From NCBI GenBank assembly GCA_965230945.1, contig OZ246397.1, positions 438,284-502,283 of the forward strand: a stretch of 64,000 bases of DNA. The letters run 5' to 3'. Origin of the DNA: an uncultured Gammaproteobacteria bacterium (lineage in GTDB: Bacteria > Patescibacteriota > Microgenomatia > PFEM01 > JAPLYW01). Shown here piece by piece: positions 4,793 through 47,055 of this stretch (positions within the stretch are counted from its first letter, which is position 1; each line of letters starts with the position of its first letter). The translations under genes and the position numbers were made by a program. The notes beneath the pieces were generated by a model. That model searched no databases and was not told the origin of the DNA. It saw only the letters and a program-made list of their open reading frames with translations.

Positions 4793-4864
4793 GGGCCTGT
4801 AGTTTAACGGTTAAAATGGGATTCTTATAAAGTCCAGTAGAAGGTTCGACTCCTTCCAGGCCCA
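4793..4864 (+). tRNA. tRNA with anticodon UAU (Ile, AUA-decoding type)
   Basis: Manual cloverleaf: acceptor GGGCCTG/CAGGCCC; D-arm gttt-aacggtta-aaat with G18G19; anticodon stem ggatt/agtcc with loop cTTATaa (U33 present); T-arm gaagg-TTCGACT-ccttc; discriminator A. Confidence 0.55.
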
Positions 4865-4941
4865 CTCTAGCTTTTTTAATTTTAGACTTTGGTGTTTTAA
4901 TAGTCTTGACTCTTTGGGTTTCTTTCGGATAAAATAAGCTT

Positions 4942-10423: not shown

Positions 10424-11146
10424 TCATTCTAAATTTATCTTTTTAAAACATCTAAGACCGTTTTTATCGGTTCCCGCTTCAACAAAATCTTCAAAGATAA
10501 CCGGAATAACTTCCTTAAGTTTCATAAGTAAATCTCCCGTTACCTGACGGATTTCCCAATGAGCTGCTTTTTGAGTACGCATTTCAAAGATATGTCGCCA
10601 TTGTCTAAAATTGGCAGTAACAACAATATCAGCATTAATGGCGATAGGAAGTATTTGCCGAGCGTCTTCCGGAACCCAACCAGCTTTTCTCAAACCTCGA
10701 TAATACATCTCCACCTTATGCAGCATATCTACCATTGACATTCGTGTATCGTCCTCAAGTAGAACAACTTCATATGCGTTTTTATGAGGGGGTACAGTAC
10801 AATGTAGCTGGAACTTTTCTAAATCAACTTTTTTACCCGCGTAGTCAACATATCTCGTTGATTCCTGAGAGAAAGCACAGATGCGATGTCGAACCATTTC
10901 GTGAGTAAAGCCACGGGAAACGTCAAGGAACTTTACACTTAATGTAGAGTGCTCGATTACGCTTTCATGACCTCTTTTAATAACCGTCCTGATGAATCTA
11001 TTTGCCGATTCTTCGGTAATTTTATTTTTTTCAGAACGATAACAAGTTCTACCTGCGCTTTCCAGCCTTAATAGTTGAGCCTTAAGTTCACTTTCCGATG
11101 TAAGAATAACAGAAAGGCCTCTTTTTACAACTTCCATTACCATCAC
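10424..11146 (-). CDS. thyX: Flavin-dependent thymidylate synthase ThyX
   Basis: ThyX motif RHR-x7-S is present (HEMVRHRICAFSQESTRY); length 240 aa. Confidence 0.8.
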   Translation of the reverse strand: MMVMEVVKRGLSVILTSESELKAQLLRLESAGRTCYRSEKNKITEESANRFIRTVIKRGHESVIEHSTLSVKFLDVSRGFTHEMVRHRICAFSQESTRYVDYAGKKVDLEKFQLHCTVPPHKNAYEVVLLEDDTRMSMVDMLHKVEMYYRGLRKAGWVPEDARQILPIAINADIVVTANFRQWRHIFEMRTQKAAHWEIRQVTGDLLMKLKEVIPVIFEDFVEAGTDKNGLRCFKKINLE

Positions 11147-11273: not shown

Positions 11274-12137
11274 TTAAAGTTCTTCTATTTTGATTTTCTT
11301 TTCTCCGGTTTCTTTAATAAGATCAAGATATTTTTCCGTGGTAGAGAGACGTTTATGACCAACTAGTTTTTGGATAAGAACTACAGAAGCTCCATTGGCT
11401 AGTTGGTGGGCAATAAAGGTGTGTCTGAGATCATTGATAGTCGCATCTTTAATTTCCGCTTCTTTAAAATAACGGCCAACAATAGTGCGAATGTTTCTGA
11501 CCAGAAATGGTCTTCCAGTTTTAGTTATAAAGATGTTTTTGGTTTTAGTTTTAAGCCTGAATTCCAACCAGCGTTCTAGTGATTTTTTGGCTGATTGGTT
11601 CAAGACGATAGCTCTTTCAGGTTGAGATTCATAAGCTTTAATTTTAAGTTGATTGTCTTTAAAATCAGCAAGTTCTAATCGAGCGAGTTCTCCAATACGG
11701 ATACCGGTTTGAAGCAATAATTCAACGACAGTGGAGATGCGGACATCATTACGGACAGCATCTCTTAAAGCTCGGTATTCCATCTGACTTAGAATTCGAG
11801 GAGGTTTAGCTTCATAACTAGGATATGTGATTGATTCAGCAGGATTATTGTCAATGATATTTTGGCTATTTAAATATTTGAAAAAAGACTTGATTGAATT
11901 AAGTTTTCTGGAAGCTGATTTAGGTAGATATTTATTGTAATTAAGGTATTCTTTAAAGTCTTCAATATGTTCAGGGGTAATAGAAGTTGCTTGAGTAATT
12001 TGTTTTTTACCCAAAAATTCAATAAACTGACTAAGGTCATTGCCATATGCTAAAATAGTAGAAGACGATTTACCTTGTTTTTTTAAAAAGTCGATAAATT
12101 TTTTATAGGCAGTATTCAGAGATTTATCATCAGCCAT
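11274..12137 (-). CDS. Tyrosine site-specific recombinase, XerC/XerD family
   Basis: N-terminal SAM-like segment (ILAYGNDLSQFIEFL) and a C-terminal catalytic region with R...H..R...Y arrangement (LRHTFIAHQL...GHKRLSTTEKYLD); 287 aa. Confidence 0.75.
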   Translation of the reverse strand: MADDKSLNTAYKKFIDFLKKQGKSSSTILAYGNDLSQFIEFLGKKQITQATSITPEHIEDFKEYLNYNKYLPKSASRKLNSIKSFFKYLNSQNIIDNNPAESITYPSYEAKPPRILSQMEYRALRDAVRNDVRISTVVELLLQTGIRIGELARLELADFKDNQLKIKAYESQPERAIVLNQSAKKSLERWLEFRLKTKTKNIFITKTGRPFLVRNIRTIVGRYFKEAEIKDATINDLRHTFIAHQLANGASVVLIQKLVGHKRLSTTEKYLDLIKETGEKKIKIEEL

Positions 12138-12230: not shown

Positions 12231-12605
12231 ATGTCAAATAAAAAGTTAAACTTACTTATACGCAGCAGGCTAGTTCAGATAGTAATTATTTTTATCGGTA
12301 TTGGTCTTATAGTCAACTTGTCAAAGGATATCATAGGGCTTTTAAAATCAGCTGGGGAATTAAAGCTAACCGAGCAGAGGGTAGGGGAGGTAAAGGAAGA
12401 AACCCTTAGCCTGAAACAAAAGAAAGAATATTATCAATCAAATGAATTTATTGAAGAAATGGCGAGAAATAAACTTAATATGGCCAGAGAAGGAGAAACG
12501 GTTGTTATTCTACCGCCAAATATAAAAGAAGTTTTGGGTTATCAAGAGTCTACTCTTCCTGAGTATATTCCCAATTGGAAACAATGGTTTAATCTATTTA
12601 GGTAG
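12231..12605 (+). CDS. Septum formation initiator family protein (FtsB/DivIC-like)
   Basis: N-terminal TM, then a coiled coil, then FIEEMARNKLNMAREGETVV resembling the FtsB/DivIC C-terminal motif. Confidence 0.5.
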   Translation: MSNKKLNLLIRSRLVQIVIIFIGIGLIVNLSKDIIGLLKSAGELKLTEQRVGEVKEETLSLKQKKEYYQSNEFIEEMARNKLNMAREGETVVILPPNIKEVLGYQESTLPEYIPNWKQWFNLFR

Positions 12606-12652
12606 TAAAGCTTGTTCTAGATTCGTTTTTTTGATAAAATTACTTTATGATA

Positions 12653-12926
12653 TGCGGGGTAGTGTACGGCAGCACGTGAGGCTCGTTTAAAATTGGGCCC
12701 TCTAATAGGTAACTATTGAGAGTGCACTCGGCTATATCGGTGAAACCCTACTGTAACTAGAGGGCAATACCGAGGGAACCCTAAAAATATTAGGGACTCT
12801 GTAGAGACTACACGCCGAGCATCCTGAATTTATTTAGGATGAAGATATAGTCCGACACTTTGAGTAATCGGAGCAAACAGTTTGCATAATCTCACAGACC
12901 GGGTTCAACTCCCGGCCCCGCAACCA
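12653..12926 (+). tRNA. tRNA(CAU) (elongator Met or Ile2 type) interrupted in the anticodon loop by a group I intron; exons 12653-12683 and 12885-12926
   Basis: Exons fold as acceptor tgcgggg/ccccgca, D-arm gtgt-acggca-gcac, anticodon stem tgagg/tctca with loop c-U33|CAUaa, T-arm ccggg-TTCAACT-cccgg, discriminator A and encoded CCA. The 5' exon ends in U and the intron ends in G. Confidence 0.6.
12684..12884 (+). ncRNA. Group I self-splicing intron (about 201 nt, ORF-less) inside tRNA(CAU)
   Basis: Contains group I R-like CTGTAGAGACTACACG and S-like GAAGATATAGTCCGAC elements. Boundaries are U|intron...G|exon. Size and host gene resemble the minimal Azoarcus-type tRNA intron. Confidence 0.6.
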
Positions 12927-12928
12927 AA

Positions 12929-13000
12929 GGTAGGGAGTAGACTGGTGTCTTGGAACGTTTCATAAGCGTTTTTTAGTGGGTTCGACTCCCACCCCTACCA
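12929..13000 (+). tRNA. tRNA with CAU anticodon (second copy; D-arm atypical)
   Basis: Acceptor ggtaggg/ccctacc; anticodon stem aacgt/gcgtt with loop ttCATaa; T-arm gtggg-TTCGACT-cccac; discriminator A. The D-arm is short, so this call is less secure. Confidence 0.45.
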
Positions 13001-13003
13001 CAA

Positions 13004-13029
13004 CCACTTCTAAAGGGAGTGGTTTTTTG
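13004..13029 (+). terminator. Rho-independent terminator after the tRNA pair
   Basis: CCACTtctaaagggAGTGG hairpin followed by TTTTTT. Confidence 0.5.
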
Positions 13030-13046
13030 TTAAAATAGTCCCAAGT

Positions 13047-14027
13047 ATGGCTGAAAAAAGAGTTTTTTCAGGAATTAGATCAAGTGGAAGACTGCACATT
13101 GGTAATTACTTTGGGGCAGTTAAGGGAATGCTTGCCTTGCAAGACACTCATGATTGTGTCTTTGGAGTGGTGGACTGTCATGGTATAACGACACCCTTTA
13201 ATCCTCAAAATATGCAGAAAGAAATAAGGGAAGTCGTTTTAGATTATTTAGCTGCTGGTCTTGATCCAAAGAAATGTCACTTAATGATTCAATCTCAAGT
13301 ACCCGAGCATATAGAGCTTTCTTATTTCTTTGCTACCATTTTTCCTGTGTCCAGACTTGAGCAGCTGCCTACTTACAAAGAAAAAAAGATTGAAAATCCA
13401 AACTATGTTAATTTAGGGCTTTTGTATTATCCGATTTTAATGGCAGCAGATATTTTAATTTACAAAGCAGATAAAGTTCCTGTAGGAAAAGATCAATTGC
13501 CTCATATTGAATTAACCAGAGAAGTGGCTAGGAAATTTAACTCTATGTTTGGAAAAATATTCCCTGAACCCCAGGCTTATCTGACCAAGGGTGCTTTAGT
13601 CCCATCTTTACTAGGAGAAGGTAAGATGAGTAAATCGCTAAAAGGGAGCTATATTTTGTTAACTGATGATTTAAAAAGTGTTAAAGAGAAATTAGCTAAG
13701 GCTCCCACTGATAGGGGTTTTGGTAAAAGTATTCCAAAAGAAGGCGGCGTGGCTAACTTGCTATTCTTCGTTGAACTTTTTATGGGTGAAAAAGTAAGAA
13801 AAGAATACGAAAAGCAGTATTTAAGTAAGGGAATTAAATATTCAGAACTTAAAGAAAAACTAGCAAAAGCTGTTTTTGAGGCTCTTCAACTAATTCAAGA
13901 GAGAAGGAGATATTTTGAGGATAGGCCTAAATTGGTTGATGAGATTCTAGAAGAAGGAAGAATCTATTGTTCAAAGCTTGCCAAAGGGACTCTTTTAGAG
14001 GTTAAAAAAGTCATGGGTTTGGTTTGA
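13047..14027 (+). CDS. trpS: Tryptophan--tRNA ligase
   Basis: Class I aaRS motifs: the HIGN-type motif in SGRLHIGNYFGA and KMSKS in GKMSKSLKGS; 326 aa. Confidence 0.9.
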   Translation: MAEKRVFSGIRSSGRLHIGNYFGAVKGMLALQDTHDCVFGVVDCHGITTPFNPQNMQKEIREVVLDYLAAGLDPKKCHLMIQSQVPEHIELSYFFATIFPVSRLEQLPTYKEKKIENPNYVNLGLLYYPILMAADILIYKADKVPVGKDQLPHIELTREVARKFNSMFGKIFPEPQAYLTKGALVPSLLGEGKMSKSLKGSYILLTDDLKSVKEKLAKAPTDRGFGKSIPKEGGVANLLFFVELFMGEKVRKEYEKQYLSKGIKYSELKEKLAKAVFEALQLIQERRRYFEDRPKLVDEILEEGRIYCSKLAKGTLLEVKKVMGLV

Positions 14028-40694: not shown

Positions 40695-42872
40695 CTATCT
40701 TCTATATTGGTATTGTCTGTGTTTAGAGGCGTATTTGTAGGAATAGCGATCGTTGGATACTTTAATAACTTTGTCTCGATTTTGATTGAAGGACTTAGGT
40801 AGAGGTAGGGTATAGGCAAAAAAGGGTCGAGAAGTTAAGTTATCGACGGCGAGTTTGAGAACAATCTGGAAGTTGGAAAGACCTACTAAATTCTTCTGAG
40901 TAAAGATACTTCCAAATTCTTTTTCTAAGATATAGGCATCTTCAGCGCCGACGATAAAAGAGATTAAAGTGCCGGCGTTGCCAAAAATAGCTTTCTGAAC
41001 CGGTTCATCAATTTGGGCAATATATTGATTAGTCAGGCAAAGGTTTAATCGATATTTTCTAGCTTCAGATAAGATTTTAATAAAAGAGTCAGTAGCAAAG
41101 TTCTGAAATTCATCAACATACAAATAGAAATCTCTGCGCTTTTCTTCAGGCATATGGACTCTGCTCATAGCCGCTAGTTGCAATTTACTGATAATCATGG
41201 CTCCTAAAAGAGCCGCATTATCCTCACCTAATTTTCCCTGAGAGAGGTTGAGAATTAAAATTTTACCTTCATTCATAATTTTTTCAAAATCAACTGTTGA
41301 GTGCGGCTGACCAATAATATCTCTAATTGAGGTTGAGGAGACAAACTGACCAACTTTGTTTAAAATAGGGGCGATGGCTTCCTGTTGAAGGCGGTCAGGC
41401 ATTCTTTCAAATTCTTTAAGCCAGAAATTCCTTAAGACTGGATCATGGAGGTTTCCCACTATTCTTTGGCGAAATTTCTTATCAGTTAATATTCTGGGGA
41501 TGTCAACCAATGTACTTCCAGGAGTTTTAACCAAAGTAAGCAAGGTATTACGGAGGATATGTTCCAGCCTGGGACCCCAGGAAAAAGAATAAAGTTTATG
41601 GAAGATAGAGATAATACCTGAGGCAATTAGCTCTCCCTGGGAAGGGTCTTTAACCTCTAAGATATTAATAGAAAAAGGAAAGTCTTTATTAGACGGGTCG
41701 AGATAACAGACTTCGTTGATGCGATGAGAGGGAATGTAATTGAGAAGAATCTCAGAAAGATCACCATGAGGATCAATTACCGCCAATCCACGCTTTTTCT
41801 TCATGTCATCAATGGCCATATTAGCGATCAAAGTTGATTTACCAGTACCTGTCTTGCCGATAACATATATGTGGCGGCGACGATCTTTTTGTTTAATGCC
41901 GAAATTGGTTAGTCTGTTTTTGAATTCAGTTTTGGCAAAAAAATTGATTTCTTGCTTTTGTTCTTCAGTAAGATTAATAGCTGCTGGCAGATTTTCTGGA
42001 GCCTCAGTTAATACTTGTCTTCCCCAAGAAATATTAGGGATCTTGGTTTGATCACTGGGCAGGTGCCATAAGGTAGCTAATTCTGAAATGGTTAATACTT
42101 GGTATTTGGGAATAGATTCAGGCGATCTTTTAAATAAAGACTGAATAGATTTCTTTTTTCTTAAGATGGATGGTTTTTTAAAGCCAAGACTGTTGCCATC
42201 ACCTTTAGTAAAGATGTCTAAACTGCCGACAATAGATTTTAAAAGGCTAGGATTGGAGGCAGCTACTCTGATACCTACAATTAGCCCTTGTTCCTGGATT
42301 TTTTGTTTAATGGCCGCTTCTCCAGGTAGGGGACGACGTTCATTTTCACCAGCCTTAATACCTTCATCAATAGCCTTTTGGCCTTGTTTCTGCCAGCCAG
42401 AAGGGGCTTTTTGGATAATAAATTGGATGATGCTTTTATCTTCTTCATTTCCTTTTGACATGACTGCTAAAAGATTGCTTAAAGGGTCAACATCAACAAA
42501 CTCTTTAAGAGTTTTTAAAGGGTAAAAGAAGCTCTTTTCTAAAATTAATTGGCCAAAATAAATTTTTTCTGGATTCCAATCTTGTAAATAATTGGTAATT
42601 TTATTTAAGACCGCCAAAGGATAAGCAGCTAGGATTTGGCTTTCAAAATAGGGAAGCAAAGATTTATCTAGAACGACGCAAAAATGAATTTGTTGCTGTT
42701 CACAAACAATCTCTAAAGTCAAAGATTCTGGTTTTTTACCTCTTAATTGCTCAAAAAAGCTAGGTAAAGAAAGAATTTTGGTGAATCCAGAAAACAAAGT
42801 ATGGGCATTTTCTGGAGTATACTCATTTTCCCTAGGAACCTTTATTTCTAAGATAACTTTTTCTTCAGGCAT
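40695..42872 (-). CDS. FtsK/HerA/VirD4(TraD/TraG)-like P-loop ATPase, paralog of 2421-4748, no N-terminal TM
   Basis: Walker A HIYVIGKTGTGKST and Walker B LYVDEFQNFAT; collinear similarity to the first copy in both the N-terminal and ATPase regions. Lies between 16S and tRNA-Ile on the opposite strand. Confidence 0.6.
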   Translation of the reverse strand: MPEEKVILEIKVPRENEYTPENAHTLFSGFTKILSLPSFFEQLRGKKPESLTLEIVCEQQQIHFCVVLDKSLLPYFESQILAAYPLAVLNKITNYLQDWNPEKIYFGQLILEKSFFYPLKTLKEFVDVDPLSNLLAVMSKGNEEDKSIIQFIIQKAPSGWQKQGQKAIDEGIKAGENERRPLPGEAAIKQKIQEQGLIVGIRVAASNPSLLKSIVGSLDIFTKGDGNSLGFKKPSILRKKKSIQSLFKRSPESIPKYQVLTISELATLWHLPSDQTKIPNISWGRQVLTEAPENLPAAINLTEEQKQEINFFAKTEFKNRLTNFGIKQKDRRRHIYVIGKTGTGKSTLIANMAIDDMKKKRGLAVIDPHGDLSEILLNYIPSHRINEVCYLDPSNKDFPFSINILEVKDPSQGELIASGIISIFHKLYSFSWGPRLEHILRNTLLTLVKTPGSTLVDIPRILTDKKFRQRIVGNLHDPVLRNFWLKEFERMPDRLQQEAIAPILNKVGQFVSSTSIRDIIGQPHSTVDFEKIMNEGKILILNLSQGKLGEDNAALLGAMIISKLQLAAMSRVHMPEEKRRDFYLYVDEFQNFATDSFIKILSEARKYRLNLCLTNQYIAQIDEPVQKAIFGNAGTLISFIVGAEDAYILEKEFGSIFTQKNLVGLSNFQIVLKLAVDNLTSRPFFAYTLPLPKSFNQNRDKVIKVSNDRYSYKYASKHRQYQYRR

Positions 42873-44523: not shown

Positions 44524-45310
44524 ACAAGGGATTTTGCGCCGCAAATTCAGGAGGCTAAAGTAAGTACCGAAGATGGAGCTGCGTTTAACTTCGGTTAAAC
44601 GTGGGGTAGAGGAGCGTCGATATGGCAGTGAAGCCATTTTGTAAGGAATGGTGGAGTAGTATCGAGTGAGAATGCCGGTATGAGTAGCAAAATTCCAGTG
44701 AGAATCTGGAACGCCGAATGTCCAAGGTTTCCCACGTAATGTTTGTCAGCGTGGGGTTAGTCGACCCTAACCCGAGGCCGATTGGCGTAGGGGATGGATA
44801 GCAGGTTTATATTCCTGCACCTTAATTATTTCGTTATTAACTAGGGAGGGACGGGATTTGATAGATAAGGTGTCTTATTGATTTGACATTTAAACAACGA
44901 ATCAGTTCTAATAGGCAAATCCGTTAGAGCGACGATGAGTTGAATGAAAAGGCCAAAGGCAACGGCGGCCAATCTTATTGCGTTAAGTCTCCAAGAAAAG
45001 CTTCGTGGTGAGGAATAATTAGGATCGTACCGTAAACCGAAACAGGTGGACTGGACGAGTAGTCTAAGGCGGACGGGAGAAGAGAGTTTAAGGAACTCGG
45101 CAAAACAACTGGACGTAACATTTGGAGATGTCCTACCCTGTTTATCAGGGTCGCAGCGAAAGATTGCTTACCGACTGTTTAACTAAAACACAGGTCTCTG
45201 CAAAGGCGAAAGCCAAAGTATAGGGGCTGAGGCCTGCCCAGTGCCGGAAGGTTAAGAGGACCTCCTTTATGGAGAGAATTGAAGCCCCGGTAAACGGCAG
45301 CAGTAACTAT

Positions 45311-45580
45311 GAATAGATTGTAGTTGTAAAAGTCGACTATATGCTGGAACATCCGTACCGTCGTTAAAGAACACGAACGGTTGCAGTATCTGACGCTACC
45401 ATATTTTTATATGGTGACAATGCGATCAGTGCGGACAATCAGCAGGAAAGGCTTAGGTTTTTCTAAGAATCCTCAGAGACTATACGTCGACCTCTTAAAA
45501 TAGAAATTAAGAGATGATATAGTCCGACCTCATGGGCGACCATGAGACTCCGTATTCAATCGGAGCTTAGTAACAAAGTG
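45311..45580 (+). ncRNA. ORF-less group I intron in 23S (helix 69-71 region, near E. coli position 1917-1923)
   Basis: Splits GTAACTAT / AACTGTTCTACGGTAGCG. R element CCTCAGAGACTATACG and S element AGATGATATAGTCCGAC are present. The 5' exon ends in U and the intron ends in G. Confidence 0.6.
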
Positions 45581-46299: not shown

Positions 46300-47055
46300 A
46301 GGAAATGCTGCCTTGGTGAGTAATTACCAAGGTCACTCTTGCTAAAATTGGTGAAATCCTCTAAAATGATATCGTTGGTCCTTTTGATTTAGAGGACCAC
46401 ACCAAGGGAAGGTTAGAATTTTTCTCTATGACAGATCAAGAAAAAGCATATATAGCAGGATTTTTAGACGGGGATGGAAGTATTATGCTTCAATTAAAGC
46501 CTAGAAAATTAGTAAGTTATGGCTTTAGAGTAAAAACAACGCTTTGTTTCTACCAAGATACACGTCATAAAAAGGGTTTATCTTGGATTAGGGGTAAATT
46601 AGGTATAGGATATCTTTCTCAAAGGAAAGATAGGATTACCGAATTAAGAATTGAAGGTTATAAAGCTGTTAAATCAGTTTTGAATGAATTAGCCCCCTTT
46701 ATTATCTTTAAAAAGAAACAAGTCAAAATTATTCTAAAGGCAATTTTAATAATGGAAAATAACCCTAATCCTAAGGAATTTCTGAAAGTTTGTAAACTTT
46801 CAGATGATATTTCTGCTATTAATTATGCAACTGTACGAAAAAAATATAATTATGTTTTCGTACGTAAGAAGTTTATAGAGAAAGGTTTGATACCCCCTTA
46901 ACGACTGATCCTGATTCACTTTTGTGAAGAAGGAGAGATAGGAGTTACTTCTACTTTATTAGTAGAAAATCTATGGCTCTTATAATAAGGCAAGCCCCCA
47001 GTTTTTTCTGGGGTGAAGGTATAGTCTAACCCTTTAGTAATAAGGGAATAAGTTG
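46300..47055 (+). mobile_element. Intron (probably group I) in the 23S sarcin-ricin loop region, carrying a LAGLIDADG homing endonuclease gene
   Basis: Splits ...CACAGU / ACGAGAGGACC. The intron ends in G. An S-like element AGGTATAGTCTAA lies near the 3' end. Confidence 0.65.
46428..46901 (+). CDS. LAGLIDADG homing endonuclease (intron-encoded)
   Basis: YIAGFLDGDGS is a LAGLIDADG motif; 157 aa single-motif form; entirely inside the 23S intron. Confidence 0.8.
   Translation: MTDQEKAYIAGFLDGDGSIMLQLKPRKLVSYGFRVKTTLCFYQDTRHKKGLSWIRGKLGIGYLSQRKDRITELRIEGYKAVKSVLNELAPFIIFKKKQVKIILKAILIMENNPNPKEFLKVCKLSDDISAINYATVRKKYNYVFVRKKFIEKGLIPP

Follow-up and report, generated by a model that had tools for sequence, protein, structure and literature searches.

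Two segments of the window (the whole 64,000-nt stretch of contig OZ246397.1 analysed here, from a Patescibacteria (Microgenomatia) bacterium of small genome size, with positions counted from its first base), at 12653-12683 and 12885-12926, look like the halves of a tRNA with the anticodon CAU and stand 201 nt apart. This raises the question of whether they form one working gene that is interrupted by a self-splicing intron and, if so, which tRNA that gene supplies. An initial annotation, made from the letters of the sequence, had proposed that a group I intron interrupts a tRNA(CAU) gene within its anticodon loop, with exactly these exon coordinates, U|...G| boundaries and a second tRNA(CAU) next to it, and all of this was confirmed by the computational follow-up. 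From the sequence evidence it appears highly probable that 12653-12926 is a single-copy tRNA(CAU) gene in which a compact group I ribozyme of 201 nt, without an open reading frame (ORF), separates U33 from C34. The split tRNA is also likely to be the initiator tRNA of its lineage, of an unconventional type with U1:A72 and an A:U/G:C/G.U anticodon-stem triple.

ARAGORN in intron mode (-i) placed the tRNA(CAU) gene at 12653-12926 on the forward strand, with a 201-nt intron at 12684-12884 reported as the insertion 'aggct-Intron-cataa', i.e. between U33 and C34 of the anticodon loop. Exon 1 (12653-12683, +; TGCGGGGTAGTGTACGGCAGCACGTGAGGCT) contains the 5' strand of the acceptor stem, the D arm, the 5' strand of the anticodon stem, C32 and U33, the last of which is U-1 of the intron. 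The intron (12684-12884, +; RF00028 and ARAGORN) starts with CGTTT and ends with TTTG, its final base being the omega-G (12884). Exon 2 (12885-12926, +; CATAATCTCACAG...CCCCGCAACCA) contributes CAU, A37 and A38, the 3' strand of the anticodon stem, the variable loop, the T arm, the 3' strand of the acceptor stem and A73, and CCA is encoded. When the exons were joined without 12684-12884, ARAGORN returned a cloverleaf of 73 nt whose anticodon loop (CUCAUAA) has 7 nt. A splice register shifted by +1 would give the same mature RNA, because intron base +1 and the first base of exon 2 are both C, but would need C-1 and a terminal C and was rejected; no further register yielded U/G boundaries together with a 7-nt loop.

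The flanks form a tRNA. No match to a tmRNA or other structured RNA was obtained with ARAGORN or Rfam, and the intron-less orthologue in a relative (L053, 1348-1417) scored 49.3 bits with the Rfam tRNA model. The split gene was invisible to default ARAGORN and to the Rfam tRNA model when these were run on unspliced DNA; default ARAGORN reported the downstream tRNA(CAU) (12929-13001) alone at this locus. No second copy of the split tRNA was found within the 64-kb window. The 6-7 kb that include the locus were identical in two independent assemblies (a JGI 3300008517 contig and Logan SRR3095933), and thus the locus is neither an assembly artefact nor a chimera.

The intervening sequence matched Rfam RF00028 (Intron_gpI) at 12674-12874 (+) over the full model (1-253) with 87.2 bits (E 7e-21), above the gathering score of 50 bits. 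The R-like element (GUAGAGACUA; 12802-12810, +) and the S-like element (AAGAUAUAGUCC; 12842-12853, +) on which the initial annotation had relied were both present, the latter consisting of J8/7 (AAGAUA) and the 3' strand of P7 (UAGUCC), as supported by invariant columns among the 25 introns aligned below and by the Rfam alignment. The minimum free energy (MFE) fold of 12674-12894 (-70.4 kcal/mol, z = -4.2) displayed P1, P2, P3, P4, P5, P6, P8 and P9. P7 was missing from this fold because it is the pseudoknotted partner, and was included in a hand-written structure with the pseudoknot. All elements lie on the forward strand. In the P1 hairpin of the MFE fold (12680-12699), positions 12680-12685 (G30, G31, C32 and U33 plus intron bases +1 and +2) pair with the internal guide UGGGCC (12694-12699), and the U33(12683).G12696 wobble marks the 5' splice site. 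P2 (12703-12718) is capped by a GUAA (GNRA) tetraloop; the 5' strand of P3 (CUCGGC, 12727-12732) pairs with its 3' strand (GCCGAG, 12814-12819) to form the P3/P7 pseudoknot; and the P4-P5 domain (12737-12773) contains P4 (12737-12742 with 12768-12773) and P5 (12746-12749 with 12761-12764), joined by J4/5 (AAA) and J5/4 (CAA). The P6/P6a hairpin (12774-12799) and the P8 hairpin (12820-12841) were taken from the MFE fold. The 5' strand of P7 (G-A(bulge)-GACUA, 12804-12810, with bulged A12805) pairs with UAGUCC at 12848-12853, directly after J8/7 (12842-12847), and P9 (12858-12873) again ends in a GUAA tetraloop. The ORF list contained no ORF of at least 30 aa inside the window intron.

Relatives were obtained by scanning one genome per GTDB species with the 5'-terminal 24 nt of exon 1, in which a single base was left free. 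The scan yielded at least 119 loci (L001-L119), nearly all from Woesebacteria, Shapirobacteria, Microgenomates or Patescibacteria metagenome-assembled genomes (MAGs), and all counts of relatives given below hold among these listed matches. Apart from the variable base, these 24 nt were identical in all 119 species genomes. The intron was present at the same site in 24 of the 119 species (about a fifth) with lengths of 184-266 nt, and the other 95 carried the empty site GGCU|CAUAA of an uninterrupted tRNA. All 24 homologous introns follow U33, and all 25 family members, the window intron included, end in G directly before CAUAA. The window intron was 76% identical to that of L009, the nearest among the matches listed, and 67% identical to that of GCA_001029755.1 (L028). 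The longest member (266 nt; L027, 6678-6963) carries an apparently duplicated P1/guide segment at its 5' end (ATTGGGCC, then TTTGGTCAC).

To assess the structure, the 25 introns were aligned with 10-nt flanks using MAFFT, the register being imperfect at P8, and pairing was counted on the hand-written structure that includes the P3/P7 pseudoknot, with partners slid by 1-3 columns and 500 shuffles as controls. In total, 90.6% of cells paired, compared to 33-49% in the slid controls, and compensatory double changes occurred at 29 of 52 pairs, with none of the 500 shuffles reaching the observed values. Covariation was seen in P2 (6 of 6 pairs), P3 (4 of 6 pairs, 96% of cells paired), P5 (3 pairs), P8 (7 of 7 pairs, subject to the imperfect register) and P9 (4 of 6 pairs, 92-100% of cells paired), as well as in the anticodon stem that is formed between the two exons. 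P4 was 100% paired, and the base of P6 was 92% paired with 1 compensatory pair. The U.G pair of P1 (25/25) and all six P7 pairs (25/25) were invariant, as were the A residues of J4/5 and J5/4, and the G:C, C:G and G:C pairs that flank the wobble in P1 were held in 22-25 of the 25 introns. Judged from the alignment, this is the pattern expected of a functional ribozyme family. None of the 25 introns has an ORF or encodes an endonuclease, and the family lengths leave no room for an intron-encoded endonuclease.

Downstream, the second tRNA(CAU) (tRNA#2; 12929-13001, +; ARAGORN, 32.6 bits with the Rfam tRNA model) starts 2 nt past the CCA of the split tRNA (tRNA#1), and is followed at its 3' side by an intrinsic terminator-like hairpin and T run (13002-13034, hairpin 13002-13024, +). 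The same terminator hairpin stands behind tRNA#2 in the intron-less L053. The gene order and the terminator therefore define a unit of tRNA#1 with its intron, 2 nt, tRNA#2 and the terminator, in which tRNA#2 is probably co-transcribed with the split tRNA. By eye, a possible extended -10 element (TGaTAAAAT, 12632-12640; unverified) lies upstream.

From these features we infer guanosine-dependent self-splicing of the Met(CAU) 33/34 intron. In the proposed sequence of events, a two-tRNA precursor would be transcribed, the intron would fold into P1-P9 with the P3/P7 pseudoknot, and the internal guide UGGGCC would pair with exon bases G30-G31-C32-U33, forming the U.G wobble. An exogenous guanosine, bound in P7 at G12806-C12852 (which we take to be the guanosine-binding pair by analogy with Tetrahymena G264-C311), would then attack after U33. 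The omega-G (12884) would next occupy the guanosine site and the free 3'-OH of U33 would attack before C34, a step that may be aided by a short P10 between the intron triplet (U/AUG) and the anticodon CAU. The predicted product is a mature tRNA whose anticodon loop reads CUCAUAA. G30 and G31 would be contested between P1 and the anticodon stem, and the full tRNA fold would be available only after the first step. The triplet 5' of the guide that could pair with the anticodon as P10 was AUG in 19 of the 25 introns and UUG in 6, including that of the window (12693-12695). Several points weigh against a gene that is spliced and expressed in this way. The P10 of the window intron is weak (2 bp, with UUG instead of AUG), a promoter scan found no sigma-70 consensus promoter upstream of the unit, and the splicing assays of PMC13011429 were limited to Asn/Asp 35/36 introns.

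The intron is not new as a kind. The survey of 95 complete Patescibacteria genomes by Nakagawa et al. 2026 (mSystems, PMC13011429) recorded group I introns in the tRNA genes of 19 and includes Met(CAU) 33/34 examples from two genomes of Microgenomatia, GCA_001029755.1 and GCA_013426185.1, the first of which (CP011214.1) is L028 of the present alignment. Judged by sequence similarity, the window intron is an orthologue within this published Microgenomatia Met(CAU) 33/34 family. It shares with both published introns the host tRNA (with 2-3 differences in the 31 positions of exon 1), the U33|C34 site, U-1 and the omega-G, the lack of an ORF, the internal guide sequence UGGGC and the segments GGCUAUAUCGG, UAGAGACUA.ACGCC and GAUAUAGUCCG.CACU, and the family profile scored 105 bits against the GCA_013426185.1 intron (nhmmer). 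The differences are of species and length (201 nt, compared to 190 and 216 nt), and of the label given to the host tRNA, which PMC13011429 calls elongator Met and which we read as the initiator. The rarity suggested for such introns by the initial annotation holds across bacteria generally but not in this phylum, for which they are described as common (19/95 genomes in PMC13011429; 24/119 listed species here).

Descent was compared by scoring the 25-member family profile against other tRNA introns with nhmmer, as a proxy for subgroup models. The profile gave 40-60 bits with the Patescibacteria Asp, Tyr and one Asn intron (35/36), 36 bits with an IC3 fMet intron (Bacteroidota), 34 bits with the window's own 23S intron, 31 bits with Patescibacteria Phe 33/34 and 22 bits with IC3 Arg. 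It gave 21 bits (20.9) with Patescibacteria Asn GCA_025999335 (35/36), 10 bits with IC3 Leu and 7 bits (6.7) with Patescibacteria Asn GCA_016700035 (35/36), which is spliced in vitro. By profile similarity, the window intron groups with further tRNA introns of Patescibacteria and not with the IC3 introns compared. In line with this, PMC13011429 places no Patescibacteria tRNA intron in subgroup IC, and nearly all in IA by covariance-model scoring. In the window intron, the 5' strand of P7 is separated from P3' by 3 nt (CAC, 12811-12813). Subgroup IA, as Michel and Westhof are said to have described it in 1990, has as its hallmark extra P7.1/P7.2 helices between P7 and P3', and with a 3-nt spacing the window intron lacks these.

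The initial annotation had likened the intron to those of cyanobacterial tRNA-fMet and Azoarcus tRNA-Ile, a comparison that is apt for mechanism but not, by profile similarity, for lineage. The cyanobacterial intron (fMet.2Ug, IC3) has in common the 33/34 site, the CAU anticodon, U-1, the omega-G and, if our identity call is right, an initiator-type host, whereas its lineage is different; some cyanobacterial copies carry PD-(D/E)XK endonuclease genes, compared to 0/25 introns here. Given the profile scores, the common 33/34 site would reflect convergence or transposition rather than common descent, the fMet intron that was scored being that of Bacteroidota. The Azoarcus tRNA-Ile intron is likewise compact (~200 nt), interrupts the anticodon loop of a tRNA with the anticodon CAU, has the same P1-P9 order and is without peripheral domains. 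Its P2 and P9 are tetraloop-capped, as in the window intron. It differs in its position after U36 (Ile2.5Ug), its host (tRNA-Ile2) and its subgroup (IC3), and its splicing and 3D structure are experimental, whereas those of the window intron are predicted. The Patescibacteria Asp/Asn/Tyr 35/36 introns are from the same phylum, of similar size, share core motifs and mostly lack an endonuclease gene, whereas the Asp/Asn 35/36 introns have other host tRNAs and another site, and hence another guide, and four Asn copies carry HNH endonuclease genes. Self-splicing in vitro was demonstrated for Patescibacteria Asn and Asp 35/36 introns (PMC13011429), which covariance models assign to subgroup IA. Among bacterial tRNA introns as a whole, fMet.2Ug (33/34) is one of four classical classes, to which 17 more were added (Williams, bioRxiv 2020).

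The identity of the host tRNA was examined in the 92 intron-less genes, in which U1:A72, G2:C71, C3:G70, G4:C69, A73, U11:A24 and the anticodon-stem triple A29:U41/G30:C40/G31.U39 were invariant (92/92), while pairs 27:43 and 28:42 covaried freely. Bacterial initiators are characterised by three G:C pairs at 29:41, 30:40 and 31:39 (3GC), mismatched bases at 1:72 (E. coli, C1xA72) and the Fmt determinants 2:71 and 3:70, and au/GC/gu is a documented natural variant of the triple in some mycoplasmal and alpha-proteobacterial initiators. The triple of tRNA#1 is not the canonical 3GC and equals this variant. Its acceptor stem differs from that of E. coli metZ at base 1 only, with the Fmt pairs G2:C71 and C3:G70 present, and the spliced tRNA was 73% identical to E. 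coli metZ (fMet) and 72% identical to Bacteroidota fMet, compared to 59-60% for E. coli metT, ileX and Acidobacteriota Ile2.

The complement of CAU tRNAs points the same way. In Table S2 of PMC13011429 (ARAGORN; complete Patescibacteria genomes), classes with tRNA-Ile=2, including Microgenomatia, have CAU=2, and classes with Ile=1 have CAU=3. A tRNA#1 locus was never accompanied by more than one other CAU tRNA, and was usually clustered with tRNA-Ile(UAU), which in the window lies at 4793-4865. tRNA-Ile(UAU) and a second CAU tRNA shared one 8-kb locus in 66 of the 119 relatives, 51 of them with tRNA#1. These data suggest that tRNA-Ile(UAU) has taken the place of tRNA-Ile2(CAU)/TilS; a literature search for TilS or lysidine in the candidate phyla radiation (CPR) gave no result. 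Because AUA would presumably be read by tRNA-Ile(UAU), the two CAU tRNAs should be an initiator and an elongator.

In the elongator role, tRNA#2 is a plausible candidate. Its orthologues were found in 97 relatives and had U32 in 89 of the 97 genes, and position 31:39 was non-Watson-Crick in nearly all (AxC 53, U.G 29, AxA 11), giving a four-pair anticodon stem. Among tRNA-Met genes for the elongator, 27% have such a stem, compared to 0.2% of tRNA-fMet genes. The other CAU tRNA in relatives has a canonical elongator D arm and no R:Y triple. In the window itself, the D arm of tRNA#2 is aberrant (A8, G9, stem UAGA/UCUU) and is skipped by the Rfam tRNA model, while the L053 orthologue (1472-1544), 54 nt downstream of tRNA#1, has a canonical D arm and scores 66.5 bits. 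tRNA#2 is probably the elongator tRNA-Met; were it Ile2 instead, no methionine tRNA other than tRNA#1 would be left, and initiation would still fall to tRNA#1.

A competing reading accepts the intron and holds that its host is the elongator tRNA-Met, as in Nakagawa et al., with the initiator role falling to tRNA#2 or to a third CAU tRNA that escaped detection. Several features of tRNA#1 count against an initiator and for this alternative. The 3GC rule is satisfied in a degenerate R:Y form only; 1:72 is a weak Watson-Crick pair (U:A, 92/92) rather than the initiator mismatch; initiators have A11:U24, whereas U11:A24, found here, is the elongator pattern; and G2:C71 and C3:G70, which are MetRS identity elements, occur in the elongator tRNA-Met of E. 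coli as well. In addition, 52 of the 97 tRNA#2 genes have the weak pair G1.U72. The Met assignment in PMC13011429 was made from the best intron-less homologue and its tRNAscan-SE label, and such labels call the intron-less orthologues elongator Met. On the other side, complete Microgenomatia genomes have two CAU tRNAs only, and tRNAscan-SE gives Met=2 in several of them; if that column excludes fMet, as the Saccharimonadia rows suggest, no initiator is called and one of the labels is wrong. tRNA#2 has no R:Y triple, with C:G at 30:40 in 50 of the 97 genes and the irregular 31:39 pairs described above, tRNA#1 is nearer to fMet (73%) than to Met (60%), and its triple is invariant while the remaining stem covaries. 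We therefore regard an elongator host as a minority possibility, at about one chance in a few, and favour tRNA#1 as the initiator. The stronger form of the latter reading, in which the split gene (U1:A72, AU/GC/GU stem, U11:A24) is the sole initiator tRNA of Microgenomatia and has been mislabelled as elongator Met by isotype models, is somewhat less secure, and still the better bet.

It is very unlikely that the intron is a decaying relic that no longer splices and the split tRNA a pseudogene. The lack of a homing endonuclease and the degenerate-looking D arm of the neighbouring tRNA#2 would fit such decay, but the U.G wobble, P7, J8/7, the A residues of J4/5 and J5/4 and the omega-G are intact and invariant over 25 species, the helices are upheld by compensatory changes and the exons are strongly constrained. 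With no spare copy in the window and two CAU tRNAs only in the class, loss of the split tRNA should be lethal. Less probable still is that the tRNA belongs to an integrated mobile element or genomic island brought in by the nearby tyrosine recombinase, an enzyme that the initial annotation had placed adjacent to the tRNA. The recombinase ORF is there (11274-12137, -; Pfam Phage_integrase and an N-terminal SAM-like domain), and tyrosine integrases often lie beside tRNA genes that serve as attachment sites. A DivIC-like gene (12231-12605) stands between it and the split tRNA. Synteny, however, contradicts a link to the intron. A recombinase homologue was found by tblastn within the 8-kb locus in 95 of the 119 relatives, 21 with and 74 without the intron, with TrpS nearby in 69 and DivIC in 28 of the 119. 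The homologue nearest to that of the window among the matches listed (Xer 75% and TrpS 70% identity) is in L053, which has the same gene order and is intron-less. Since the recombinase is kept regardless of intron state, it is a conserved syntenic Xer-like gene that is unrelated to the intron, and the locus can be explained without att-like repeats (a search for these was not made). Group I introns are not known to use tyrosine recombinases. On the other flanks, ThyX (10424-11146, -) lies beyond the recombinase, and TrpS (13047-14027) and then FtsH follow the tRNA unit.

Active intron mobility had also been suggested for this lineage, and it is a fair conjecture in that very close relatives differ in intron state. 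At Xer identities of 95-96%, the intron was present in L077, L111 and L074 and absent from L010, L038 and L119, respectively, and thus intron turnover is ongoing. It does not follow that introns are being gained, as none of the 25 encodes an endonuclease and the pattern of presence and absence would be accounted for equally well by precise loss. Related hosts (L076/L077 and L074/L081) carried the most similar intron pairs. Overall, intron identity and Xer identity were uncorrelated (Spearman rho 0.02), a value that is uninformative at such divergence, with the closest pairs alone tracking each other. The introns of L019 and L076/L077 were 72-77% identical at an Xer identity of 47-49%, which could reflect lateral transfer of the intron among distant Microgenomatia or a paralogous Xer match.

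As an intron, the window sequence adds one more orthologue to a family published in January 2026, and what interest remains comes from its host tRNA, as a probable initiator, and from hosts that are near-identical and yet differ in the presence of the intron. In practical terms, default tRNA finders miss the gene, so that a genome of this kind would be scored without one of its two CAU tRNAs, which lowers completeness estimates. If the initiator reading is true, the initiator supply of intron-bearing genomes would depend on a ribozyme, and in about a fifth of the species of the class (among the matches listed) translation could never be initiated without it. The U33|C34 site would then have been reached convergently by an intron lineage with no relation to the IC3 fMet intron compared. 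This site may be favoured because the invariant, initiator-specific bases G30-G31-C32-U33 are the target of P1, which would also explain the stable guide GGGCC, and because the AUG-like triplet pairs with CAU in P10. Microgenomatia would initiate with a non-canonical tRNA, which bears on Fmt, IF3 and P-site recognition in reduced genomes. The intron-bearing species, with RNA self-splicing as the sole route to their initiator, would offer a simple natural system for asking if such introns have a regulatory role or just persist. The species pairs with and without the intron at Xer identities of 95-96% provide matched pairs for a study of gain and loss.

Several minor observations concern the rest of the window and the sampled genomes. 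A group I intron lies inside the 23S gene (45301-45546, 63.2 bits with RF00028), as the initial annotation had stated, and a weak Intron_gpI match (46911-47047; 26.6 bits, E 0.0014) falls in the 1-kb interval that separates the LSU model match, which ends at 46327, from the 5S gene (47367). The spacer of the rRNA operon is split by a 725-aa ORF (40695-42872, -) with a P-loop (GKTGTGKST), which is located between the end of the 16S gene (40558) and tRNA-Ile(GAU) (43011). Many species-representative MAGs with the Microgenomatia-type tRNA and the genes syntenic to it (e.g. L002, L004, L006 and L009; TPA binchicken assemblies) are titled 'uncultured Gammaproteobacteria bacterium', and these titles are evidently wrong.

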